Positions 8,261 to 55,410 of a DNA stretch of 64,000 nt are shown here, in pieces (position 1 is the stretch's first letter; the number at the start of each line of letters is the position of its first letter). The notes below the pieces were generated by a model, which ran no database searches, was not told the origin of the DNA, and was given only the letters and a program-made list of their open reading frames with translations. The stretch is from Acidimicrobiales bacterium (GTDB taxonomy: Bacteria > Actinomycetota > Acidimicrobiia > Acidimicrobiales > JAUTXP01), in the NCBI GenBank assembly GCA_035651095.1, contig DASRGI010000190.1, positions 2,941 to 66,940 of the forward strand, in the 5' to 3' direction. The translations under genes and the position numbers were made by a program.

Positions 8261-8808
8261 CGACGCCCTCGAACGCGGAGCAACGCTTCGAGGAGATCTA
8301 CCGGTCCACTCGACGCGATGTGCTCGCCTTCCTGGTCCGTCGCGTTGCCCAGCCGGCCGATGCAGCCGACCTACTGGCTGAGGTGTACCTCATTGTCTGG
8401 CGCCGACTCGACGTCGTCCCTCCGGACGATGAGGCGCGCCTTTGGCTCTTCGGAGTGGCCCGGCGAGTGCTCGCCAATCACCACCGCGACGGACGTCGAC
8501 GTGAACGGTTCACCGAGGACCTCGCGGCCGCGCTGGTCGACGCGACGAGAGCGTCCGCTCCGGCTGATGCATCGGTCGTCCACAACGACCGCGTACGAGA
8601 CGTGAGGCGAGCAATCGAAGCGCTGAACCCCGTCGACAGGGAAGTGCTCACGCTCTTCGCGTGGGACCACCTGAGTGCTGCGGAGATCTCCGCCGTCACG
8701 GGCGCCACGCCCGGTGCAATGCGTGTTCGTCTCCACCGGGCGCGTGAGCGTGTGCGCGCCGCGCTCGCGAAGGGCGGCCGCCCCTACCCGGAGCTGTCGA
8801 CAACCTGA
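8257..8808 (+). CDS. ECF-type RNA polymerase sigma-70 factor
   Basis: 183 aa with region 2 (DLLAEVYLIVWRRL) and region 4 (REVLTLFAWDHLSAAEISAVTGATPGAMRVRLHRARERV). Confidence 0.9.
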   Translation: MTTPSNAEQRFEEIYRSTRRDVLAFLVRRVAQPADAADLLAEVYLIVWRRLDVVPPDDEARLWLFGVARRVLANHHRDGRRRERFTEDLAAALVDATRASAPADASVVHNDRVRDVRRAIEALNPVDREVLTLFAWDHLSAAEISAVTGATPGAMRVRLHRARERVRAALAKGGRPYPELSTT

Positions 8809-8892
8809 TGACAAGGCCGGTGGCCACGTGCGGGAGACCCGAGAACGAGGGCGCGAGCGCGTGGGGTCGGCGAATGCGGAGCCGCTGGGGTC

Positions 8893-9831
8893 TCATTGGG
8901 CAGGCACGGTGAGTTCGAGCGCCCAGTGCTGCCCGACGAGGTCTGCACCAAAGCTGTGGTGCGCTTCTTCTTCGACGAGCCTGAAGCCTGCACGTTCGTA
9001 GATACGACGAGCATCCACGAGCACGTCGTTGGTCCAAAGGACGAGGGATCGGTACCCCGCGTCGCGGGCGAACTCGATGCACTGGTTCACCAGCGTCGAT
9101 CCCACGCCAAGACCTCGGGTGTGGGGCTCGGCGAGCAGAAGGCGGAGTTGCGCAGTTTCGTCATCACGACGGACACAGAAGACGCATCCGGCCGGCGCCC
9201 CCGCGACTTCTGCGATCCAAGCCGCCTCACGCGCCGGGTCGTGATCCTCCAGGTAGTCGACGACGATGCGGGCCACGAGCGCCTCGAAGGTGTGATCCCA
9301 GCCGTACTCCGAGCTGTAGATCGCTCCGTGGCGCTCGACAACCCAGCCGTACTCGCCGGCGAGCGGTGAACGCAGGGTTACCTCTGAAGCCATGCCGTCC
9401 GATGCCAGAATGCCCTTGATCACATCCATGGCGCTGAGAAGTCGACGTTGCACGGGCTCGGCGTGGCGTCCCAGAAGATTCTGGATGTCCTTCGCCGACC
9501 GTCGATTCAACGTCGCGAATTCCTTGCCTCCGTTCTTCGTCAGGCTGATCACCTGTCGCCGTCCGTCTTCGTCTGAACGTCGGCGCGAGATCAGGCCCTG
9601 GGCTTCGAGGCGGGCGAGGATGCGACTGAAGTAGCCGGAGTCGAGGCCGAGGTCGTGCCGCAGCGCCGCGGTGTCGGCGTCCCCGCGGGTCGCGATCTCG
9701 AAGATCACGCGCGCCTCGCTGACGTTCCACCGGGTGTGGAGGTAGGCGTCGTTCAAGATGCCGATCACTCGCGTGTAGAAGCGGTTGAACGAACGCACTC
9801 TCGCCACCCGTTCGGCGGTGCCGGCATCCAT
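8893..9831 (-). CDS. MarR-type HTH fused to a GNAT N-acetyltransferase
   Basis: Internal ATG of ORF 8893..10377. The N-terminus has FNRFYTR...LARLEAQGLI (MarR); the C-terminus has RGLGVGSTLVNQCIEFAR...YERAGF (GNAT). Confidence 0.85.
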   Translation of the reverse strand: MDAGTAERVARVRSFNRFYTRVIGILNDAYLHTRWNVSEARVIFEIATRGDADTAALRHDLGLDSGYFSRILARLEAQGLISRRRSDEDGRRQVISLTKNGGKEFATLNRRSAKDIQNLLGRHAEPVQRRLLSAMDVIKGILASDGMASEVTLRSPLAGEYGWVVERHGAIYSSEYGWDHTFEALVARIVVDYLEDHDPAREAAWIAEVAGAPAGCVFCVRRDDETAQLRLLLAEPHTRGLGVGSTLVNQCIEFARDAGYRSLVLWTNDVLVDARRIYERAGFRLVEEEAHHSFGADLVGQHWALELTVPAQ

Positions 9832-45480: not shown

Positions 45481-47093
45481 TGGACTTCAGCTTCGCCGAG
45501 GTGCTCGGCGCCCTCGCCGTTCCCTTCGCCGCCAAGGAAGCCGTCGTCGACGGCGAGCGCCGGTTCACGTGGGCCCAGTTCGACGCCCGCACGCGCGGGT
45601 TCGCCGCCTTCCTCGCCAGGCTGGGGCTGCACCCCCGCGCCGAGCGGGCCGACCTGGCCAACCACGAGTCGGGTCAGCACCACCTGGCCATCTACCTCCA
45701 CAACTCGGCCGAGTTCCTGGAGGCACTGGTCGGTGCCACCCGCGCCCGCCTGGCCCCGTTCAACGTCAACTACCGGTACCAGGCCGCCGAGCTGACCTAC
45801 CTCCTCGATGACGCGTCGCCCTCCGTGGTCGTCTACGAGGGCGCCTTCGCCCCCGTGCTGGCCGAGGTGCTGCCCCGGTTGCGGCGCCGCCCGGTGCTCG
45901 TGCAGGTCGACCGGGGCCACGGCGACCTGCTGCCCGATGCCATCCCCTATGAGGCGGCGGTGGCCGCGCACAGCGCCCTGCCCGAGGCCAACGGCGACGA
46001 CCTCTACATCCTCTACACGGGAGGCACGACGGGCATGCCCAAGGGCGTGCTCTGGCGGCAGGCCGACATCTTCGTCACCGCCCTCGGGGGCCGGAACTTC
46101 CGGGGCGGCGGGGCTGAGTGGTCAAGCGTCGAGGACCTGGTGGAGGCCGCCATCAAGCGCCCCGGCCCTCGCCTCCTGCCCGCCCCGCCGTTCATGCACG
46201 GCACGGGCCAGTGGACCGCCCTCCAGGCCCTCGTCGCCGGAGGCACGGCCATCATCCAACCGGGCGCCACCCGCTTCGACCCCCACACCGTGCTCGACAC
46301 CATCGAGCGGGAGCGGGTCGAAGTGCTGGTGATCGTGGGCGACGCCTTCGCCCGTCCCCTGGTGGAGGCCCTCGACGGGAGTGACCGGCACCGGGACCTG
46401 TCGTCGCTCGTCGCCATCGTCTCCAGCGGCGCCGCCGTCACCAGCACGACCAGGGAGGCCATCGCCCGCCTCCTCCCGCACGTGAAGCTGAAGGACGTGG
46501 TCGGGTCGTCCGAGAGCGGGCCCCAGGCCGACGCCCAGGAGGGCCGGGTGTTCGTGCCCCGGCCGGGCACGCTGGTGGTGTCGACCGATCGCGCTCGGGT
46601 CCTGTCGCCGACCGGCGAAGCCGGCGAGGAAGGGTGGCTGGCGTCGTCCGGCCGCGTACCCCTCGGGTACCTGGGCGACCCGGCCAAGACGGCCGACACC
46701 TTCCCCGTCATCGACGGCGTGCGCTTCTCCATCCCCGGCGACCGGGCGCGCTACGTGGACGACGGTGCCATCGAGGTGCTGGGCCGGGACTCCATGACCA
46801 TCAACACCGGGGGCGAGAAGGTGTTCGCCGAAGAGGTCGAGTCCGTGCTGTGCGACCACCCAGCGGTGGCCGACGCCCTGGTGGTGGGCAGGCCCAGCGA
46901 GCGTTGGGGTTCCGAGGTCGTGGCCGTGGTACAGCTCACCAGCGCCACGACCGACACCGAGTTGCTGGCCCACTGCACCGACCACCTGGCCCGCTACAAG
47001 GCGCCCAAGCAGATCGTGTTCGTCGACGCCGTGCGCCGCTCGCCGGCGGGCAAGCCCGACTACGCCTGGGCGTCCGAGGTGGCCAGGGCCTGA
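45480..47093 (+). CDS. AMP-dependent acyl-CoA synthetase (FadD3-like, medium size)
   Basis: Its ATG overlaps the upstream stop. Contains YILYTGGTTGMPKGV, RDSMTINTGGEKV and LARYKAPK. Confidence 0.85.
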   Translation: MDFSFAEVLGALAVPFAAKEAVVDGERRFTWAQFDARTRGFAAFLARLGLHPRAERADLANHESGQHHLAIYLHNSAEFLEALVGATRARLAPFNVNYRYQAAELTYLLDDASPSVVVYEGAFAPVLAEVLPRLRRRPVLVQVDRGHGDLLPDAIPYEAAVAAHSALPEANGDDLYILYTGGTTGMPKGVLWRQADIFVTALGGRNFRGGGAEWSSVEDLVEAAIKRPGPRLLPAPPFMHGTGQWTALQALVAGGTAIIQPGATRFDPHTVLDTIERERVEVLVIVGDAFARPLVEALDGSDRHRDLSSLVAIVSSGAAVTSTTREAIARLLPHVKLKDVVGSSESGPQADAQEGRVFVPRPGTLVVSTDRARVLSPTGEAGEEGWLASSGRVPLGYLGDPAKTADTFPVIDGVRFSIPGDRARYVDDGAIEVLGRDSMTINTGGEKVFAEEVESVLCDHPAVADALVVGRPSERWGSEVVAVVQLTSATTDTELLAHCTDHLARYKAPKQIVFVDAVRRSPAGKPDYAWASEVARA

Positions 47094-49363
47094 TCGGCCA
47101 TCCGGTTGGCCACGGCGGCCACGACCTCGTTCTTGGGCATGGCCGGGGCGAAGAGGAAGCCCTGTCCCAACGTGCAGCCGTGGGCCTGGAGCACGCGCAG
47201 CTGGTGGGGCCGCTCGATGCCCTCGGCCACCGTCGTGATGCCGAGGGCCCGGGCCAGGTCGATGATGGCCTTCACCAGTTGCAGGCCGGCCTCGTCGTCG
47301 ATCGCGTCCACGAAGCTGCGGTCGATCTTGATCTCGTCGAGCGGGAAGTCGCGCACGTAGGACAGCGCCGAGTACCCGGTGCCGAAGTCATCCAGGGCCA
47401 CGCGCACGCCCAGGGCCTTGAGGGCGGTCAACTGGGTGATGGCCTTGTCCCGCCCCCGCAGCGCGCTCTCGGTGATCTCGAGGGTGAGCAGGTGGGCCGG
47501 CAGCCCGCTGGTCTCGAGGGCAGCGCGCACCTCGCCCACCAGGTCGCCGTCGAACTGGCGGACCGATACGTTGACGCTCACTGCGTAGTCCCTGCGCAAC
47601 GTGAGTCGCCACGCGGCGGCTTGGCGGCAGGCGTCGGTCAGCACGAATCGGCCGATCTCGGCGATGAGCCCGCTCTCCTCGGCTACGGGGATGAAGCGGG
47701 CCGGGGGGATGGCGCCGGCCGTGGGGTGGTTCCACCGGGCCAGGGCCTCGAAACCCACGATCTCTCGGTTGTGGATGGAGACGATGGGTTGGTAGTGGAC
47801 GTCCAAGTCGCCTTGGCGCACGGCCTGGATGAGATCGTTGCGCAGGGCGACCCGCTGCTGCAGGCGCTCTTGCATGACAGGGACGAACAGCTCGATGCGG
47901 CCCTTGCCCGCTCCTTTGGCCTGGTACATCGCGATGTCGGCGGCCCGCAGCAGCTCGTGAACAGAGTGGGGCTCGTCGCCCGGGCCGACGACGGCCACGC
48001 CCACGCTCGTGGTGACCATGAGATGGAACCCGTGCAGGACGAAGGGCCGCTCGAAGGCCGCCAGGATGCGCTGGGCGGCGTCGAGGGCGCCCTCGGGGCC
48101 GCTCACGTCGTCCAGCAGCACGGCGAACTCGTCACCGCCGAGGCGGGCAGGCACGTCCCGCGGGCGCAAGGCCGTCCGCAGCCGGTGGGAGACGGCGCGG
48201 AGCAGGTCGTCGCCGACGTTGTGGCCGAGCGTGTCGTTCACGTTCTTGAAGTCGTCCAGGTCGATGAACACCAGCGCCGCCCTCGTGTCGGGGTTCAGGC
48301 AGGTTCGCTCCACGTACTGCACGAACTCGTCGCGGTTGACCAGACCGGTGAGGGCGTCGTGGCTGGCCCGGTGGATGAGCAACTGCTCGAGCAGCTTGTG
48401 TTCGGTCACGTCCCGGAGGGTGACGAGCACTGCCCCTTCGGGCCCCCCGGCATAGGACGGGTTGGCGATGGCCTCGATCGTGCGCCGGCGGCCGTGGGTG
48501 TCGGTGCTGCGCCACTCGGCGTGCTCCAGGTCGTTGGCCGTCCGGGCGTCATCGACCACGGACGCCGCTCCCCGCGCGCTGGACACTCCGAGGCTCCCCA
48601 GCCGACGACCGACGAGATCGTTCTCGTTCAGGCCCACCAGGGCCGCCGCCGACGGCGAGGCGAAGGTGACGCGGTTGTCGGGCCCGGTGACCATGATGCC
48701 GTCGGCCGCGTTCTGGACCAGGGCCCGGAACCGCAACTCGCTCTCGGCCATGACCGTGGCCCGCTCGTGCGAGGCCACGGCGTGCAGGCGGTGCCGGTTG
48801 GCCCGCAGGACGATGAAGGTGATCAGGCCCCCGGCACTCATCATGGCCAGGAGGGAGCCGACCCGCAGCCACCACACCGCCCGTTCGGCGGAGCGGGTCG
48901 CCTGGTTGCTGGTCTCCTTGAGGACGTCATGGAGCTGGTCGAAGGCGGGGTCCACCCGCTCCTCGTCGACCTTGATGGCAGCGCCGAGGTCACCCTGGCG
49001 CAGGAGCTTGAACTCCTCGGTCACCCCGTCCCGGTATTCACGGAAGGGCGCGGCGGCGTTTTCGTACCAGCGCGACCGGGTCGAGACCTGGGCGAGGAGG
49101 TCGTCGGCGCGGGCCAGATCGGACGTCATCTTCATCTCGATCTCAGGGGTGACGGTCCCCACGGCCCGAGCCCGCCACTCGTCGGCGTCTATGGCCTCGG
49201 CCACGGCCTGCAGCCTGGCGGCGCGCAGGGCGGCCTTGTGGTGCTCCTCAGCCGTGCTGGTCAGGCCCAGCACCGACCAACCGGCGACAGCCACAACGGC
49301 CACGACCAGCACTGGAGCTACCCACAAGCCGTGTCGCCCGCTTCTCCGCCAGTCTCCACGCAT
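47060..49363 (-). CDS. Membrane sensor with PAS, GGDEF and EAL domains (c-di-GMP turnover)
   Basis: Two TM helices flank a helical extracytoplasmic domain. PAS region (RFRALVQNAADGIMV), GGDEF motif RLGGDEFAV, and EAL motifs (EALARW, DDFGTGYS). The start was chosen at ATG 49363; the ORF track extends to 49447. Confidence 0.9.
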   Translation of the reverse strand: MRGDWRRSGRHGLWVAPVLVVAVVAVAGWSVLGLTSTAEEHHKAALRAARLQAVAEAIDADEWRARAVGTVTPEIEMKMTSDLARADDLLAQVSTRSRWYENAAAPFREYRDGVTEEFKLLRQGDLGAAIKVDEERVDPAFDQLHDVLKETSNQATRSAERAVWWLRVGSLLAMMSAGGLITFIVLRANRHRLHAVASHERATVMAESELRFRALVQNAADGIMVTGPDNRVTFASPSAAALVGLNENDLVGRRLGSLGVSSARGAASVVDDARTANDLEHAEWRSTDTHGRRRTIEAIANPSYAGGPEGAVLVTLRDVTEHKLLEQLLIHRASHDALTGLVNRDEFVQYVERTCLNPDTRAALVFIDLDDFKNVNDTLGHNVGDDLLRAVSHRLRTALRPRDVPARLGGDEFAVLLDDVSGPEGALDAAQRILAAFERPFVLHGFHLMVTTSVGVAVVGPGDEPHSVHELLRAADIAMYQAKGAGKGRIELFVPVMQERLQQRVALRNDLIQAVRQGDLDVHYQPIVSIHNREIVGFEALARWNHPTAGAIPPARFIPVAEESGLIAEIGRFVLTDACRQAAAWRLTLRRDYAVSVNVSVRQFDGDLVGEVRAALETSGLPAHLLTLEITESALRGRDKAITQLTALKALGVRVALDDFGTGYSALSYVRDFPLDEIKIDRSFVDAIDDEAGLQLVKAIIDLARALGITTVAEGIERPHQLRVLQAHGCTLGQGFLFAPAMPKNEVVAAVANRMADQALATSDAQA

Positions 49364-49482
49364 ACCGGTCCCAGTCGCTGGTCTCCCAGGAATTTCATCG
49401 TCGTGCCTGACAGTCGACTTGACGACCAAAATTCGCACTTTGGACACTTTGGTGTGCAGCGGTCGGTAGCGCCCCGGTCGTC

Positions 49483-49821
49483 GTGTGCGGGGGAATGCCG
49501 TCGTACACTTTTCCGAGTATGCGCAGGACAGGAGGCGTCCGCGGCGCGACAGGTCTTTTCCCCGGAGATCACGTCCGCCGGACGTACGCCGAAGACGACG
49601 AGCACTGCCAGGCGCTGGACGCCTCCTTCGCCGACGGGATCACTGCCGGCGAGAAGCTGCTGTCCTTGGGGCCCGCCGGCGCCGTGGCCGGGGAGGTCGA
49701 TGTCACCCAGAGCGAGCTGGTGGAGACGCTTCGACGCGCATTGTTGGAGGCGTCACCGACGTTCCGGAACGTGTGGTCGCTCCTCGGGCATGGCGACCGG
49801 GCATTGGTGGCGTCGAGCTGA
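49483..49821 (+). CDS. Small ORF carrying a MEDS-domain-like N-terminal segment; possibly a truncated paralog
   Basis: PGDHVRRTYAEDDEHCQALDASFADGITAGEKLL resembles the MEDS N-terminus, and resembles the start of the next gene. Its stop overlaps the next ATG. Confidence 0.35.
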   Translation: MCGGMPSYTFPSMRRTGGVRGATGLFPGDHVRRTYAEDDEHCQALDASFADGITAGEKLLSLGPAGAVAGEVDVTQSELVETLRRALLEASPTFRNVWSLLGHGDRALVASS

Positions 49822-50750
49822 TGCATACGACGACGGGATTTCGTCACGAGGCGTTGCTCTACGCCGGGATGGACGGGTTCCTGGACGCCACGCTGCCCTT
49901 CATCGAGGAAGCCGTGGCCGCGGGCGAGCCCACCCTCGTCGTGGTGAACGAGGAGAAGATCGAACTGCTGCGCTCCCACCTCGGCCGCGACAGCGGCGCC
50001 GTGTGCTTCCTCGACATGGCCTGGGTGGGCCGCAACCCGGCGTGCATCATCCCCGCCTGGGGCGACTTCCTGGCCGAGCACGCGACCAGTGGCCGTCACA
50101 TGCGGGGCATCGGCGAGCCCGTGTGGGCGGGTCGCGACGAGGCCGAGCTGGCCGAGTGCCAGCGACACGAGTCGTTGTTGAACGTGGCTTTCGGGGAGGG
50201 CCCAGCCTGGTGGTTGCTGTGCCCGTACGATGTCGACACCCTCCCTGCCGATGTCGTCCGCGCCGCCGAGCGCTCCCATCCGTTCGTGGTCGAGGGCGAG
50301 CAGCGACGGGCCAGCGCCGCCCACGCGGCGACGAAGGCCGACGATCCCTTTGCCGGGACCCTGCCCGAGCCGGTCGTCCCGGTGGCGGAGCGGCCGTTCG
50401 CCAGGGGCCCGCTCAACGCGTTGCGCCGCTTCGTGGTCGACCAGGCCGTGGCCGCCGGCCTCGACCGGGTCCGCACCGACGACCTGGTGCTGGCCGTCAC
50501 CGAGGCGGCGTCCAACAGCCTGCGCCACGGCGGTGGGCAGGGCACCCTGCGGGTGTGGTGGGACGACCGCGCCCTGGTCTGCGAGATCCGCGACCACGGT
50601 CGCATCACCCACCCGCTCGCCGGCCGGGAGCGGCCATCCGATGAGCGGGTCGGGGGGCGGGGCCTGTGGCTTGTCAACCATTTGTGCGATTTGGTCCAGG
50701 TTCGTTCCTCGGCATTGGGGACGATCTTGCGCTTGCACATGCGGCTTTGA
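49821..50750 (+). CDS. MEDS domain fused to an anti-sigma-factor-type Ser kinase (HATPase, RsbW-like)
   Basis: The N-terminus is FRHEALLYAGMDGFLDATLPFIEEAVAAGEPTLVV. The C-terminus is AVTEAASNSLRHGGG...GGRGLWLVNHLCD. Confidence 0.75.
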   Translation: MHTTTGFRHEALLYAGMDGFLDATLPFIEEAVAAGEPTLVVVNEEKIELLRSHLGRDSGAVCFLDMAWVGRNPACIIPAWGDFLAEHATSGRHMRGIGEPVWAGRDEAELAECQRHESLLNVAFGEGPAWWLLCPYDVDTLPADVVRAAERSHPFVVEGEQRRASAAHAATKADDPFAGTLPEPVVPVAERPFARGPLNALRRFVVDQAVAAGLDRVRTDDLVLAVTEAASNSLRHGGGQGTLRVWWDDRALVCEIRDHGRITHPLAGRERPSDERVGGRGLWLVNHLCDLVQVRSSALGTILRLHMRL

Positions 50751-50785
50751 TCGGTACCCTCACTTTCCAACGGGGAGGTACCGGG

Positions 50786-51064
50786 GTGGACGGAGCGAGG
50801 GACCAGCTGGCGACCGCGATTCGGGCCGCCGCGGGTGAGGCGGAGGCGTGGGAGCGGGCTGAGCTGCATCTCCTGGAGCAGGGCCTCCGGGAGCGCTTGG
50901 CCATCCTGCAGGTCGAACCCACGCCGGAGGTGGCCGCCGCGCTGATGGCGGTGGCGTGCTACTTCGGCGAACACACCCCCGAGTGGGGCGGCGACACCCG
51001 CACCACGCTGTGCGAGATCGCCCGGTTGGGCCTACGCCTCCTGGAGGGCGACGACCCCACCTGA
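50786..51064 (+). CDS. Small hypothetical helical protein
   Basis: GTG start with RBS GGGGAGG inside ORF 50666..51064. No recognisable motif. Confidence 0.35.
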   Translation: MDGARDQLATAIRAAAGEAEAWERAELHLLEQGLRERLAILQVEPTPEVAAALMAVACYFGEHTPEWGGDTRTTLCEIARLGLRLLEGDDPT

Positions 51065-51099
51065 GCCGTTTGGCCAACGCGCCGGTGGTTGGGGCGGGG

Positions 51100-51672
51100 C
51101 TACTGCTGGCGGACGGCCTCGGCTGCCAGCTCGATCTTGACCTGCTTGCCCACCAGCCAGCCGCCCGCCTCCAGGGCCTGGTTCCACGTGAGGCCCCAGT
51201 CCTCGCGGTTGACCTCGGTCTCGGCCGAGAACGCGATGCGGACGTTGTCCCATGGGTCGGTGGTCCCGCCCTCGAACACCACCTCGAGGGTGACGGCCCG
51301 GGTCGTCCCCCTGATGGTGAGCTCGCCTTCGAGGAGCCAGTCGTCCTTGTCCCGGGTGAGCTGGCGGGACCGGAAGTCGATGGTCGGGTGGTGCTCGACG
51401 TCGAGGAAGTCGGCGCTGCGCAGATGGGCGTCGCGATCGGCGTTGCCGGTGTCGATGGACGAGGCGTCGATGGTCACCCGGGTGGACGACTCGAACGGAT
51501 CCTCACCGATCTCGATGACGCCCTGGAACTCGGTGAACCGCCCGCGCACCTTGGCCAGGCCCAGGTGGCGGACGACGAACTCGACGGCGGAGTGGGCCGG
51601 ATCGATCACGTAGGTCCCGGCTTCGGGAACGGTCAGACCGCCGATGGTACGGACGGCGACTGCGGTGGCCAT
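51100..51672 (-). CDS. YceI-family protein
   Basis: 190 aa from the internal ATG. Contains YVIDPAHSAVEFVVRHLGLAKVRGRF...NADRDAHLRSADFLDVE. Confidence 0.85.
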   Translation of the reverse strand: MATAVAVRTIGGLTVPEAGTYVIDPAHSAVEFVVRHLGLAKVRGRFTEFQGVIEIGEDPFESSTRVTIDASSIDTGNADRDAHLRSADFLDVEHHPTIDFRSRQLTRDKDDWLLEGELTIRGTTRAVTLEVVFEGGTTDPWDNVRIAFSAETEVNREDWGLTWNQALEAGGWLVGKQVKIELAAEAVRQQ

Positions 51673-51760: not shown

Positions 51761-52513
51761 ATGGTGCTCCTGGTGTTCGGGGAAGGCGTTGCCATCGCCC
51801 TCCTCGCCGTGCTGGTGGCGGGGCTGCTTCGCAGCCACGCCCAGATCCTTGCCCAACTGCATACGTTGACCGCGGCGCCCTCGCCGGGGTCCACCCCTGT
51901 GGCGAGCCCGGCCGCCATCTCGCCGCGCGCGGTGGTGGACGGCGGCACCGTGGTGGACCTGGTCGGCGTCACCCCGGCCGACGAGACGCTGAACATCGCC
52001 GTGCGCACGCCTCGCGTCGACACCCTGCTCGCCTTCCTGAGCACCGGCTGCACCACCTGCTCGGCGTTGTGGACCGGCCTCCAAGAGGGCGAGGGGCCGG
52101 AGCTGCCGGACCGCACCCGGCTGGTGGTCGTCACCCTCGGCCCGGGTGACGAGAGCCCGGCCCGCTTGCGCCGGCTGCAGCCCGACGGCGTGCCCGTCGT
52201 GATGTCGAGCGAGGCCTGGCAGGACTACAAGGTCCCGGGCTCGCCCTACTTCATCTGGGTGGACGGGACGAACGGCCGGGTGCGGGGCGAGGGTTCGGCC
52301 CGCAGCTGGCCCGAGGTGGTCTCGCTCATCGGCGACGCCACCGCTGATGCCGCCGGCGACACGGACGGTCGCACGCGAGAAGCGCGGGTCGACGCCGAGC
52401 TGGCCGCCGCCGGCATCTTCCCCGGCGACCCTCGACTGCACCCCCAGCCGTCCCTGCAGCACCAAACAACCCCTCAGCACCAAACAACCCCTCAGCACCA
52501 ACCAACAGAGTGA
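51761..52513 (+). CDS. Membrane-anchored thioredoxin-fold protein with a CxxC motif (TlpA/MauD-like)
   Basis: N-terminal TM helix, FLSTGCTTCSALW (CTTC motif), and a C-terminal low-complexity tail QHQTTPQHQTTPQHQ. Confidence 0.65.
   Translation: MVLLVFGEGVAIALLAVLVAGLLRSHAQILAQLHTLTAAPSPGSTPVASPAAISPRAVVDGGTVVDLVGVTPADETLNIAVRTPRVDTLLAFLSTGCTTCSALWTGLQEGEGPELPDRTRLVVVTLGPGDESPARLRRLQPDGVPVVMSSEAWQDYKVPGSPYFIWVDGTNGRVRGEGSARSWPEVVSLIGDATADAAGDTDGRTREARVDAELAAAGIFPGDPRLHPQPSLQHQTTPQHQTTPQHQPTE
52457..52503. repeat. 18-bp tandem repeat CAGCACCAAACAACCCCT, about 2.6 copies
   Basis: Read directly. It is in frame within the 3' tail of the thioredoxin-fold gene. Confidence 0.9.
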
Positions 52514-52584
52514 CGGTCGCCCTTGGCATCGTCGCCGCCCTCGTCGCGGCGATCCGTTCGGCCTGGTCGCCCTGAGGAGAGTCG

Positions 52585-53169
52585 ATGCTGGCCAGCATCC
52601 ACCCGCTCGGTGAGCGGGCACGAGACAACCGGTGGAGTGTCACGGTGGCGGCCTTCGTCGCCGGGTCGGTCGCGGGCGGGGTGGTGCTGGGCGCCGCCCT
52701 GGGCGCGCTGGGCCAGGTGGCCGGCGTGGGCGGCCGCACCGCGTTGGTCGCCGCCGCGGCCGTCACCGCCGTGGCCGCGGCCGCCGACCTGGCCCGCCGG
52801 GACCGGCTTTGGCCGACCGTCCGGCGCCAGGTCGACGACGAGTGGATGACCGAGTACCGGGGCTGGATCTACGGCGTGGGCTTCGGGTTCCAGCTCGGCC
52901 TCGGCCTGGTGACCATCGTGACCTCGGCGGCCGTGCACGCCGTGGTGGTGCTGGCCTTCCTCACCGGTTCGACGGTCCCCGGTGCCGTGGTGGGCGCGGT
53001 GTTCGGGTTGGCCCGGGCGTTGCCGGTGCTGGCCCTTCGTGGCATCGACGGACCCGACCGCCTCTGGCAGTTCCACCGCCGGTTCCAGGCCCTCGCCGTG
53101 CCCGTGCGCCGCTGGGGCGCGGGCGTGCTGTTGGCCGCCGCGGCCGTGGGCATGGCGGTGGGGAGATGA
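52585..53169 (+). CDS. Integral membrane protein (about 4-5 TM), function unknown
   Basis: 194 aa and highly hydrophobic, with no Cys. The stop overlaps the next start. Confidence 0.6.
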   Translation: MLASIHPLGERARDNRWSVTVAAFVAGSVAGGVVLGAALGALGQVAGVGGRTALVAAAAVTAVAAAADLARRDRLWPTVRRQVDDEWMTEYRGWIYGVGFGFQLGLGLVTIVTSAAVHAVVVLAFLTGSTVPGAVVGAVFGLARALPVLALRGIDGPDRLWQFHRRFQALAVPVRRWGAGVLLAAAAVGMAVGR

Positions 53170-53618
53170 CGACGATCGCCCGGTGGGGCCTGGCCGCCAA
53201 GCTGCCGTTGGGGTGGGAGGCCCGCATCTTCAAGCGAGCGCCGGAAGCGGCCGCCGAGTCCACCAACCCCGTCCTGCACGCGGCCAGCTTCGCCCTGCCC
53301 GCCGACCGGGGCGACTTCGGCAGCGGGGCCGTCGACCTCATGGGCCCGGACGACGTGTTCGTGACGGTGATCGAGTACGACCGCTCTGCCGCCGGCACCG
53401 CCCTCTTCGCCCGCCAGGGCTTGCCCCGGTCGGTCGACCGCAGCCAGTTCAGCCCCACCACCTTGCAGCGCATGATCCCGGGCCAGGCAGGCGCGCAGCT
53501 CTTCTTCTCCGACCGGGGCCGGGCCTTCTGCCTCTACGTGGTGCTCGGCTCGTGGGCTCGGGCCGACGCCCTGATCCCCAAGGCCAACGCCCTCATCGCC
53601 GGCCTCATGATCGAGTGA
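53166..53618 (+). CDS. Hypothetical soluble protein
   Basis: 150 aa from the internal ATG of ORF 52632..53618, coupled to both neighbours. No motif recognised. Confidence 0.5.
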   Translation: MTTIARWGLAAKLPLGWEARIFKRAPEAAAESTNPVLHAASFALPADRGDFGSGAVDLMGPDDVFVTVIEYDRSAAGTALFARQGLPRSVDRSQFSPTTLQRMIPGQAGAQLFFSDRGRAFCLYVVLGSWARADALIPKANALIAGLMIE

Positions 53619-53629
53619 TCGAGCATCCA

Positions 53630-54151
53630 ATGAACATTCCCTTCTGGTACGGGCCGTTCGCGGCGGCGGCGGCTCTCCTCGTGGCCGCCGGCGGGGCCAA
53701 GATCTGGCGCCCGGGCACCACCACCAAGGCGTTGCGCCAGGCCGGGCTGCCCGCTCGGGACACGGCCGTCCGGGTGGGCGCGGCAGTCGAGGTCGTCGTG
53801 GGCGTCGCCGCCCTGGCGGGCAACACCGCCGGCGCTGCCGCGGTGGCGATGTCGTACCTGTTGTTCGCCGCCTTCGTGGGCCTGGGCCTGCGCAAGGGGT
53901 CGCCCATCAGCACGTGCGGCTGTTTCGGCGAGCCCGACGCCGCCCCCACGGCCATCCACCTCGTGTTCAACCTGGCCGCCGCCCTGGTGGCGGCGTGGGC
54001 CGCGGTCGGGTCGGCGGTGGTGCCGCTCCGACGCGTGCTGGCCCACCAACCGCTGGCCGGGCTGCCCTTCCTCGTGATCACCGGCGTCACCGGCTACCTG
54101 GCCTACCTGGCCATGTCCGTGCTGCCCCGCCTGCGGGGGGTGCGGGCGTGA
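53630..54151 (+). CDS. MauE/DoxX-family membrane protein
   Basis: 173 aa, 4 TM helices, and the motif STCGCFGEPD characteristic of MauE-like proteins. Confidence 0.7.
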   Translation: MNIPFWYGPFAAAAALLVAAGGAKIWRPGTTTKALRQAGLPARDTAVRVGAAVEVVVGVAALAGNTAGAAAVAMSYLLFAAFVGLGLRKGSPISTCGCFGEPDAAPTAIHLVFNLAAALVAAWAAVGSAVVPLRRVLAHQPLAGLPFLVITGVTGYLAYLAMSVLPRLRGVRA

Positions 54152-55410
54152 GCCAACGGCTGGTCGAGTACGTCGCTACTCGCATCGCCTCGCATCCCAG
54201 CAACCGCCGGGACTTCCTGGTGCGCACGGCGGTGGCCGGCTCGGCCCTGGCCACGCGGCCCTGGCGCTACCTGTCCCGCCCGGGCACCGCTTACGAGGTG
54301 GTCACTGCCGCGGCCACCAGCCCCAGCCGGGCCTGCCCGCCCGGCGCCCTGTGCAAGGCCGACGCGTACGCCGAGTTCTGCTGCACCATCAACCGGGGGG
54401 TGAACGCCTGCCCGGCCGGCACCATCGCCGGCGGGTGGTGGAAGGCGGACGGGTCCATCTACTGCAACGGCCCCCGCTACTACATCGACTGCGTGGGCAC
54501 GTGCAGCCGGTGCACGGACGGTTGCAACACGCACTTCTGCCCGGACTGCGACACCGTCGCCGCGTGTGATTGCGCCCTGGGCAACTGCAACAACCGGCGG
54601 GTCGGGTGCCGCACCTTCCGCTACGGCCAGTGCAACCTCGACGTGGCCTGCGTGGGCCGGCTGTCCTGCCGGGTGGTGTCGTGCACGCCGGCGTGGCAGA
54701 TGGACCCGTCGTGCACGACGTCCAGCGCCACCGACAACCGCACGGCCAACCACACCGCGCCCTGCCTCTCGGATTCCGGCAACCCGCCCGTGGTGAGCAT
54801 CGGCGCCGCTCCCGACGGCCAGGGCTACTGGCTGGCGGCGGCCGACGGGGGCGTCTTCGCCTACGGCTCGGCCACCTTCGAGGGCTCGGCCGGCGGGCAG
54901 CAGTTGAACGAGGCCATCGTGGCCATGGCCGTCGACCGGGTGCACTCGGCCTACTGGCTGGTGGCCGGGGACGGCGGGATCTTCGCCTACGGGGCGCCCT
55001 ACCAGGGGTCCCAGGGCGGCCAGCGTCTCAACCAGCCCATCGTGGGCATGGCCTCGACGCCCGACGGCCAGGGTTACTGGCTGGTGGCGGCCGACGGCGG
55101 CATCTTCGCCTTCGGCACGGCCCGCTTCTTCGGCTCCACCGGCAGCATGCGGCTGAACCAGCAGATCGTGGGTATGGCATCGACGCCCGACGGCCGGGGC
55201 TACTGGCTGGTGGCCCTGGACGGCGGCATCTTCGCCTTCGGTACGGCCGGGTTCTTCGGGTCCATGGGCGGCCAGCCGCTGAACCAGCAGATCGTGGGCA
55301 TGGCGGCCACGCCCGACGGCCAGGGCTACTGGCTGGTGGCGTCGGACGGCGGCATCTTCGCCTTCGGGACTGCGGGCTTCTTCGGAAGCCGGCCCGATTC
55401 GCAGGGTTGA
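54148..55410 (+). CDS. Tat-signal protein: a 22-Cys domain resembling the methylamine dehydrogenase light chain, fused to five roughly 40-aa repeats
   Basis: The GTG overlaps the mauE-like stop. Twin-arginine motif SNRRDFLVRTAVAGSALA. The Cys-rich core is CPAGTIAGGWWKADGSIYCNGPRYYIDCVGTC. It is followed by 5 repeats of (GYWLVAxDGGIFAFGxAxFxGSxGGxxLNQxIVGMAxTPDG). Confidence 0.7.
   Translation: MSQRLVEYVATRIASHPSNRRDFLVRTAVAGSALATRPWRYLSRPGTAYEVVTAAATSPSRACPPGALCKADAYAEFCCTINRGVNACPAGTIAGGWWKADGSIYCNGPRYYIDCVGTCSRCTDGCNTHFCPDCDTVAACDCALGNCNNRRVGCRTFRYGQCNLDVACVGRLSCRVVSCTPAWQMDPSCTTSSATDNRTANHTAPCLSDSGNPPVVSIGAAPDGQGYWLAAADGGVFAYGSATFEGSAGGQQLNEAIVAMAVDRVHSAYWLVAGDGGIFAYGAPYQGSQGGQRLNQPIVGMASTPDGQGYWLVAADGGIFAFGTARFFGSTGSMRLNQQIVGMASTPDGRGYWLVALDGGIFAFGTAGFFGSMGGQPLNQQIVGMAATPDGQGYWLVASDGGIFAFGTAGFFGSRPDSQG
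54791..55392 (+). repeat. Five in-frame tandem repeats of about 120 bp; the last three are roughly 85% identical at DNA level
   Basis: Recurring strings CCCGACGGCCAGGGCTACTGGCTGGTGGC and GACGGCGGCATCTTCGCCTTCGG at a 120-bp period. Confidence 0.85.

Follow-up and report, generated by a model that had tools for sequence, protein, structure and literature searches.

What do relatives of the methylamine utilisation (mau) genes serve at a locus where no methylamine dehydrogenase (MADH) is to be found? The question is raised by a 64-kb stretch of DNA from an Acidimicrobiales bacterium (about 70 % G+C; the whole stretch analysed is called the window), in which five adjacent genes, g1 to g5, encode a predicted membrane-anchored CxxC protein, a MauF homologue, a conserved protein of no assigned family, a MauE-family membrane protein and an exported protein with a Cys-rich domain. 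The answer that we favour, and that we hold to be rather probable, is that these genes make up an extracytoplasmic oxidative-folding cassette of MauF, MauE and MauD relatives, dedicated to a new disulfide-knotted surface protein, the product of g5.

Conservation of the five-gene unit

The gene boundaries (Table 1) come from the list of open reading frames (ORFs) and agree with independent gene calls made on the public contig. An earlier note on this DNA had described five co-directional, packed genes with junctions of +71, -4, +11 and -4 nt, and these values were reproduced from the called ORFs. The first of them is right for the called start of g2; the gap is probably coding, however, and with the GTG start that we propose for g2, which overlaps the stop codon of g1 (GTGA), the g1/g2 junction becomes -4.

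Loci for comparison were collected by scanning species-representative genomes with a profile of the Cys-rich domain of g5. The scan returned at least 583 loci, of which 80 were analysed; together with two loci found by exact look-up and the window itself they form a sample of 83. In 62 of the 83, the complete set of five genes is found within 6 kb and in one direction, arranged in five different orders; of the 21 loci that are incomplete, 12 run into the end of a contig. The genes flanking the cassette vary from genome to genome. Judged by this comparison of neighbourhoods, the five genes form a conserved unit, and the claim to that effect in the earlier note is upheld.

Table 1. Coordinates of the genes and features of the cassette (positions are those of the 64-kb window)
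Feature	Position	Strand	Length	Assignment or basis
g1	51761-52513	+	250 aa	Membrane-anchored CxxC protein, TlpA/ResA/MauD-like thioredoxin-fold candidate
CTTC motif of g1	52049-52060			C97-T-T-C100
C-terminal motif and tail of g1	52370-52513			After the CxxC domain
g2	52510-53169 (revised start; 52585-53169, 194 aa, as called)	+	219 aa	MauF homologue, candidate Sec22
In-frame TGA of g2	52573-52575	+		At the invariant-Cys position of WSPCG; candidate selenocysteine codon (Sec22)
Two adjacent hairpins in g2	52584-52599 and 52602-52618	+		9-43 nt after the TGA; candidate bacterial selenocysteine insertion sequence (SECIS)
g3	53166-53618	+	150 aa	Conserved protein, no family assigned
g4	53630-54151	+	173 aa	MauE-family membrane protein, DsbB-like
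CGCFG motif of g4	53915-53929			
g5	54148-55410	+	420 aa	Tat signal, Cys-rich domain and beta-propeller
Twin-arginine signal of g5	54202-54255	+		SNRRDFLV...; TIGR01409, 18.1 bits against a cut-off of 16.7
Cys-rich domain of g5	54319-54783	+		22 Cys; invariant GGWW, RYYxDC and FRYGQC motifs
Propeller module of g5	54784-55407	+		Five 41-42-aa repeats; repeat register, AF2 and Foldseek

The Cys-rich domain and its family

The product of g5 is identical to a public entry from a metagenome-assembled genome, named 'twin-arginine translocation signal domain-containing protein [Acidimicrobiales bacterium]'. The twin-arginine translocation (Tat) signal and the 22 Cys reported in the earlier note are both there: the signal scores above the cut-off of its family model, and all of the Cys fall within the 144 residues from 63 to 206. 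No relative of the Cys-rich domain was found in sequence searches of Pfam or the PDB; the PDB, searched with the single sequence, a full-length profile and a domain profile, returned only a weak WD40 match for the C-terminal repeats of g5. The domain nevertheless belongs to a large group of proteins, which comprises 928 clusters at 90 % identity (E <= 0.01) and 465 clusters at 50 % identity (E <= 0.001), most of them from Acidimicrobiia, with some from Mycobacteriales, Actinomycetales and others. Literature searches found no paper on this group. On the strength of its sequences, we regard it as a distinct, large and previously undescribed family that has neither a Pfam nor an NCBIfam model. 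The suggestion of the earlier note, that g5 represents a distinct class of Tat-exported Cys-rich proteins with redox-maturation neighbours, agrees well with this large unannotated family and with the MauE and CxxC proteins that adjoin it.

A Tat signal nearly always precedes the Cys-rich domain, and the RR motif is found in most members of the family. The number of Cys is even in 305 of 333 domains, at 16, 18, 20, 22, 24 or 26, and these steps of two are as expected if all Cys are paired in disulfides. The invariant motifs other than Cys, GGWW, RYYxDC and FRYGQC, suggest a functional site beyond the scaffold. Proteins of the family consist of the domain by itself (200-280 aa) or extend it at the C-terminus with LGFP, SLH, CWB2, FG-GAP, ricin, tectonin or propeller modules. 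In three representatives, MauE and the Cys-rich domain are found in one polypeptide; these may be real fusions or gene calls merged across the 4-nt overlap. Some members (P0251, P0256, P0272, P0276, P0309 and P0348) carry the Cys-rich domain from residue 150-280 onwards and show no Tat motif at the N-terminus.

The C-terminus of g5 contains five repeats of about 40 aa, as the earlier note had stated, with periods of 42, 41, 42 and 42 aa; that they are likely to form a propeller had been missed. The repeats match no Pfam repeat family. The AlphaFold2 (AF2) model of full-length g5 has a mean predicted local distance difference test score (pLDDT) of 85.7 and a predicted template modelling score (pTM) of 0.58. 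Within the repeats the pLDDT rises to 93-98, and DSSP detects three strands in each of the five. A Foldseek search with the full-length model gave WD40-type propellers (E 5.6e-9, probability 1.0), and propellers only among the matches listed. We take the C-terminus, as modelled, to be a WD40-like beta-propeller. In Acidimicrobiales the same propeller also stands behind matrixin/metalloproteases, GH43 and S8 peptidase domains, CHAP, pyrroloquinoline quinone (PQQ) sugar dehydrogenase, chitinase and other domains (P0024-P0115), and its presence on such unrelated enzymes points to a generic surface or binding module. A role for it as an analogue of MauB was considered and rejected, because the propeller is common to unrelated enzymes and is swapped for other modules within the family.

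The propeller module has the motif GYWLVxxDGGIFxFG. There are five repeats in the window protein (420 aa), and six both in its closest relatives (P0002, 83 % identical, 459 aa) and in the family consensus; the missing sixth repeat reflects either a real loss of a blade or a collapse of repeats in the assembly.

The MauE protein g4 and the CxxC protein g1

Among the products searched against Pfam, g4 matches the MauE family (PF07291) with an E value of 1.2e-15 and 58.4 bits against a gathering cut-off of 27, whereas the MADH light-chain family was not matched. The annotation of the public contig likewise gives g4 as MauE. Both Cys of the CGCFG motif, by which the earlier note had recognised a MauE-type protein, are 100 % conserved in 62 homologues, and that assignment is secure at the level of the family. 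MauE proteins have been reported to replace DsbB in E. coli, with a requirement for their CXC motif, and MauA was found in only ~10 % of the species that contain MauE (preprint 10.64898/2026.03.05.709764). We regard g4 as a true MauE and, by family, as a DsbB-like disulfide oxidase.

The assignment of g1 is less clear cut. The protein has a hydrophobic N-terminal anchor, which is conserved among its homologues, and the two Cys of its CTTC motif are 98-100 % conserved in 65 homologues. The NCBIfam model for MauD (TIGR02661) gives an E value of 0.015 and 14.8 bits, well below the equivalog cut-off of 188.6, and three homologues of g1 found no match in NCBIfam. MauD from Paracoccus denitrificans detected one g1 homologue by tblastn (7e-5, in locus L001), and a g1 profile run against the PDB returned weak matches to StoA and CITRX (E 1.3). 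Because the family models barely detect it, we do not name g1 a MauD but describe it as a TlpA/ResA/MauD-like CxxC protein with a tentative thioredoxin fold. The earlier description of a membrane-anchored, MauD-like thioredoxin with a CTTC motif therefore stands as regards the anchor and the CxxC, while the fold and the resemblance to MauD are weak. Beyond the CxxC domain, the C-terminus of g1 carries a conserved motif, RE..D.EL.AAGI.PGDP.L.P, which in the window is followed by a low-complexity tail of PQHQTT repeats.

The MauF homologue g2 and its in-frame TGA

MauF from P. denitrificans matches g2 of the window at 2e-5 by BLASTP and at 1e-7 by tblastn. The tblastn search also gave matches in 44 other loci, down to 7e-14, and by BLASTP the homologue in locus L040 was found at 2e-17 with 36 % identity over 162 aa. 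The Pfam match of g2 to DsbD_2 is weak (E 4.6e-4). The genuine P. denitrificans MauF finds no MauF-family match in either Pfam or NCBIfam, which is why the family goes unannotated. These similarities identify g2 as a MauF homologue, and this homology strengthens the analogy with mau; it had escaped the earlier note, as had the selenocysteine candidate described below. A reading of g2 as a reductant transporter of the CcdA/DsbD type was rejected, because only a single redox residue is conserved.

Homologues of g2 have in common the sequence STWSPCG in their first membrane-spanning helix. The corresponding helix of the window protein is encoded 5' of the called ATG without a change of frame and reads GTG(52510) VTVALGIVAALVAAIRSAWSP-TGA-GESMLASIHPLGER, with the TGA in place of the Cys codon of WSPCG. 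The Cys of WSPCG is the sole invariant Cys of the family, and its column is 100 % Cys or TGA: the codon is TGC or TGT in 52 homologues and TGA in 14 loci, including the window, all of them in Actinomycetota-type genomes, and it is never TAA or TAG. The MauF-like gene of Thermomicrobium roseum has TGA at the same position. The window protein thus possesses the WSPCG feature of MauF only if the TGA is read as selenocysteine (Sec). The alternation of Sec and Cys at one invariant residue is a classical signature of a redox-active selenoprotein site.

Other features of the TGA-type genes point in the same direction. The upstream peptide RS[ST]WSP is in frame and conserved among the TGA-type loci, and for the two hairpins that follow the TGA RNAalifold predicts 13 pairs, with 99.5 % of cells paired; compensatory changes occur in two pairs, and ten of the 13 pairs are invariable. 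At equal GC content, the minimum free energy is lower in TGA-type than in Cys-type genes (-22.0 versus -18.0 kcal/mol, p 3.5e-4). Rfam, which holds no model for bacterial SECIS, gave nothing relevant around the TGA. The two types also differ in gene order, TGA-type g2 always lying directly after g1 and Cys-type g2 after g5. We conclude from these patterns that g2 of the window is probably a selenoprotein with Sec at residue 22, and a candidate for a new selenoprotein family. The literature searches turned up no report of a selenoprotein MauF or of Sec in T. roseum.

The putatively cytoplasmic protein g3 and the flanking genes

The third gene is present in 75 of the 83 loci, and its product has neither a signal peptide nor a transmembrane segment. 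Searches of Pfam, NCBIfam and the PDB found no relatives of g3; its match to DUF4365 is at the level of chance (E 0.027), and it shows no similarity to MauJ.

The cassette is bordered in the window by a divergent YceI gene upstream and by the gene for an ABC substrate-binding protein downstream. The region upstream (47060-51640) contains, besides this YceI gene, genes for a PAS-GGDEF-EAL protein (on the - strand) and a MEDS/HATPase_c_2 protein; none of these is kept beside the cassette in other genomes.

Relation of the Cys-rich domain to MauA

The setting of g5 makes it natural to ask whether its Cys-rich domain is a form of MauA, the light chain of MADH, and the earlier note had indeed called g5 MauA-like on the basis of a core resemblance seen by eye. 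The light-chain family PF02975 does not match g5 at E <= 1, does not appear among the 25 families listed when 108 diverse proteins of the Cys-domain family were searched at E <= 1, and matches none of 28 isolated Cys-rich domains at E <= 10; the controls were found as they should be, a true MauA at 2e-53 and the MauA-like protein of T. roseum at 9e-9. HMMER profile searches of the Cys-rich domain against MauA were insignificant in both directions. The label had been staked on significant similarity to MADH light chains, and as the hidden Markov models (HMMs) show none we do not regard it as established.

Profile-profile alignment brings out a little more. With hhalign, run against sets of 8, 9 and 129 MauA sequences and against the T. 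roseum MauA-like branch, the similarity is marginal (P 0.003-0.005, probability 7-10 %), at P 0.004 for the 129 MauA sequences and P 0.003 for the T. roseum proteins, and one of 200 column shuffles of the MauA alignment reaches the score. The alignment, although weak, is the same each time: it matches CPxGT and places W98 of the Cys-rich domain on Trp57 of the tryptophan tryptophylquinone (TTQ) cofactor and D114 of YxDC on Asp76. Trp57 and Trp108, the two tryptophans of TTQ, are both invariant in the MauA alignment, but Trp108 falls on Ala or Gly in the weak alignment, which leaves one cofactor tryptophan with a counterpart instead of two. The twin arginines are also invariant in the MauA alignment, and g5 and MauA have the Tat leader in common. 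When the domain was modelled by itself with AF2 from an alignment of 28 sequences, the result was poor (pLDDT 56) and its Foldseek search returned nothing; with the good full-length model, propeller matches swamped the search. The resemblance noticed by eye thus persists as a marginal profile-profile alignment that no HMM detects. We consider homology to MauA possible but unproven on these comparisons, and the Cys-rich domain is not assigned to the MauA family; the mau parallel therefore rests mainly on the accessory genes.

In keeping with the earlier note, tblastn with P. denitrificans queries (E <= 1e-4) found no MauB, MauG or amicyanin in the 64-kb window; nor were there any within ~8 kb of the 82 related loci. 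With these partners absent and no PF02975 match, the conclusion that g5 is not a methylamine dehydrogenase is retained.

Comparison with known systems

The mau cluster of P. denitrificans (mauFBEDACJGMN, L003) resembles the cassette in having the MauF and MauE counterparts of g2 and g4 and, like g1, a MauD-type membrane-anchored CxxC protein, and in placing these genes beside a small exported Cys-rich domain with a Tat signal. The window differs from it by the lack of the MauB heavy chain, amicyanin, MauJ, MauG, MauM and MauN and by the presence of an extra gene, g3. The substrate is different too: it is not seen by PF02975, has 22 Cys rather than 12 and belongs to a family fused to propeller or cell-wall-binding modules. 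Finally, the MauF of the window has TGA for Cys.

A cluster on the megaplasmid of T. roseum (NC_011961, L004) likewise has MauE outside methylotrophs, together with a thioredoxin-like gene and a MauF with TGA at the WSPCG Cys. In contrast to g5, the small Cys-rich proteins of T. roseum pass PF02975 (E 9e-9) and each is paired with a separate protein of 430-460 aa; the cluster has neither a g3 homologue nor a fused propeller. The MauF-like gene of this cluster (L004 ~8650-9328) comes after the thioredoxin-like gene and reads WSP-TGA-GYSM, and its coding sequence in RefSeq starts at an ATG 3' of the TGA (8735-9328). At least two of the small MauA-like ORFs are intact, the annotated one being that detected by PF02975 and the other unannotated, and a third is apparently frameshifted; they are interleaved with the 430-460-aa hypothetical proteins and a 596-aa MauE fusion.

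In the DsbB/DsbA and VKOR/DsbA systems, a membrane oxidase and a thioredoxin-fold carrier put disulfides into exported proteins, and DsbI/DsbL is a substrate-dedicated pair that adjoins an arylsulfate sulfotransferase. The cassette would share with them the combination of oxidase and carrier, whose genes may adjoin one demanding substrate, but its oxidase is of the MauE type with CXC, it has a third, MauF-like component with a single Cys or Sec, and its substrate carries a Tat signal. The crosslinked quinoprotein subunits, namely the beta subunits of MADH and aromatic amine dehydrogenase (AADH), which contain TTQ, and the gamma subunit of quinohemoprotein amine dehydrogenase (QHNDH), which contains cysteine tryptophylquinone (CTQ) and thioethers, are similarly small exported Cys-rich domains with invariant Trp and Asp and dedicated maturation genes. 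Unlike them, the cassette has no linked MauG, QhpD, QhpG or LodB-type flavoprotein, and the second cofactor Trp is unaligned. As for CcdA/DsbD, g2 and MauF give weak DsbD_2 matches and have P-C(U)-G in the first transmembrane helix, comparable to the PC motifs of CcdA, but they conserve one redox residue and not two.

A proposed oxidative-folding pathway

The scheme that we propose starts from the gene content, its conservation, the motifs and the Tat signal, takes the oxidase role of MauE from the literature and infers the steps between them. g5, with its observed Tat signal, is presumably exported by Tat, and its N-terminal domain of ~150 aa would be oxidised to ~11 disulfides outside the membrane. 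We suggest that g4, with its CGC active site and presumably linked to quinone, re-oxidises the membrane-anchored g1, which would act on g5 as DsbA or MauD does. g2, a CcdA/DsbD-related membrane protein with one Cys or Sec, could provide a second thiol or selenol redox step, its likeliest role being to resolve or isomerise wrong disulfides or to set the redox state of g1. Because it has no signal peptide or transmembrane segment, g3 is placed in the cytoplasm, where it might escort the unfolded Tat precursor, although we have low confidence in this step. Mature g5 would be a disulfide-knotted head that a swappable C-terminal module, in this protein a propeller of five blades, displays on the envelope, and the invariant aromatic and charged motifs of the head suggest a binding or catalytic site. 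The three members in which MauE and the Cys-rich domain share a polypeptide and the swappable C-termini both speak for such an arrangement.

Several observations weigh against it. The disulfide state of the g5 family is deduced from Cys parity only, what g2 and g3 do is guesswork, and the indications of a thioredoxin fold in g1 are weak. Three or four internal loci have no g2 nearby, and four loci (L018, L023, L029 and L045) have a lone Cys-rich gene and lack all four accessory genes within 8 kb; these lone copies of g5 are likely to be paralogues that a cassette elsewhere serves in trans. The Tat export of a disulfide-dependent protein is unusual, though MauA is likewise exported by Tat and depends on disulfides. 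In addition, MauE has been described as a generalist (preprint 10.64898/2026.03.05.709764), and for this reason the word 'dedicated' expresses linkage alone.

Different readings of the Cys-rich domain can be set beside this oxidative-folding scheme. It might be a true but very diverged homologue of MauA, a dehydrogenase subunit with a Trp-derived quinone or other crosslinked cofactor, in which the propeller replaces MauB. The gene context, which reproduces mauF, mauE, mauD and mauA, would fit this, as would the hhalign scores with their shuffle control, the shared CPxGT and Tat signals, and the superposition of W98 and D114, both invariant and both on a predicted long beta-hairpin, on Trp57 and Asp76; T. 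roseum, moreover, shows that MauA-like genes can be accompanied by MauE, a TGA-type MauF and a thioredoxin-like gene in an organism that is not a methylotroph. We consider it unlikely all the same, since PF02975 matches neither the window protein nor the 28 isolated domains and is absent from the families listed for the wider family, HMMER is insignificant in both directions, PDB sequence searches with the domain were empty and the second TTQ Trp meets Ala or Gly. Furthermore, no MauG, flavoprotein, radical-SAM enzyme or electron acceptor occurs in the 83 loci, the propeller gives way elsewhere to LGFP, SLH, ricin and other modules and is found on unrelated enzymes, and the full-length model (pTM 0.58) has no confident domain-domain packing. 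A broader version treats the MauE/MauD-like/MauF trio as a general Tat-linked maturation pathway with MauF as a selenol/thiol membrane oxidoreductase, serving Actinomycetota surface redox proteins whose heads derive from the MADH light chain and carry a MauG-independent, Trp/Cys crosslinked cofactor around GGWW and YxDC; this strikes us as a long shot. Tat substrates are typically cofactor proteins, and the use of Tat would be explained if the domain bound a metal or Fe-S cluster loaded in the cytoplasm, the neighbouring redox genes then serving another purpose; the 22 Cys do include a CxxCxxxCxxxxCPxC stretch (residues 119-134). The spacing and length of that stretch, however, are not constant among family members, and it is where the model has its lowest confidence (pLDDT 69-76). 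In addition, the Cys numbers change by twos, there is no ferredoxin-type Pfam match, and disulfides are favoured by the tight linkage of the gene to those for a DsbB-like oxidase and a CxxC protein, so that we judge metal binding very improbable.

A separate doubt concerns g2 only. The TGA could be a real stop, leaving a transmembrane peptide of 21 aa and a body that restarts at ATG 52585, with the catalytic Cys lost. GGAGAG, 5-6 nt 5' of this ATG, is a possible ribosome-binding site, and the gene callers and RefSeq place the start after the TGA. No tRNA gene, whether for Sec or otherwise, and no Sec machinery was found within the 64-kb window, a search limited to the window that also counts against our own assignment, and SelD had no match in the window or the related loci. 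We nevertheless find a split gene doubtful. In 14 genomes, and in a second phylum as well, the stop is always TGA and lies exactly at the codon of the sole invariant Cys; the peptide 5' of it is kept in frame and has its own start codon; and the RNA 3' of it is structured, with invariant synonymous positions and the two compensatory pairs. The purine-rich stretch is missing in T. roseum, and the class Acidimicrobiia includes at least one order that uses Sec (preprint 10.64898/2026.04.03.716425).

Implications

Dedicated disulfide systems are already known in kind, as is MauE without MADH, although the proposal that MauE is a DsbB-like oxidase is itself recent. What is new here is the client family, the association of MauF with MauE and a CxxC protein outside MADH, and the candidate Sec/Cys site in MauF. 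The family defined by g5 would add to the surface proteins of these bacteria a group of 465 clusters at 50 % identity, represented by at least 583 loci in species-representative genomes. For MauF, the alternation of Cys and TGA at a single invariant residue points to redox activity at that residue, a hypothesis that can be tested directly. The MauE, MauD-like and MauF components travel, in hundreds of Actinomycetota genomes, with a wholly different client, predicted to hold ~11 disulfides, and the presence of this trio beside a second client argues for a portable oxidative-folding machine for hard-to-fold Tat substrates.

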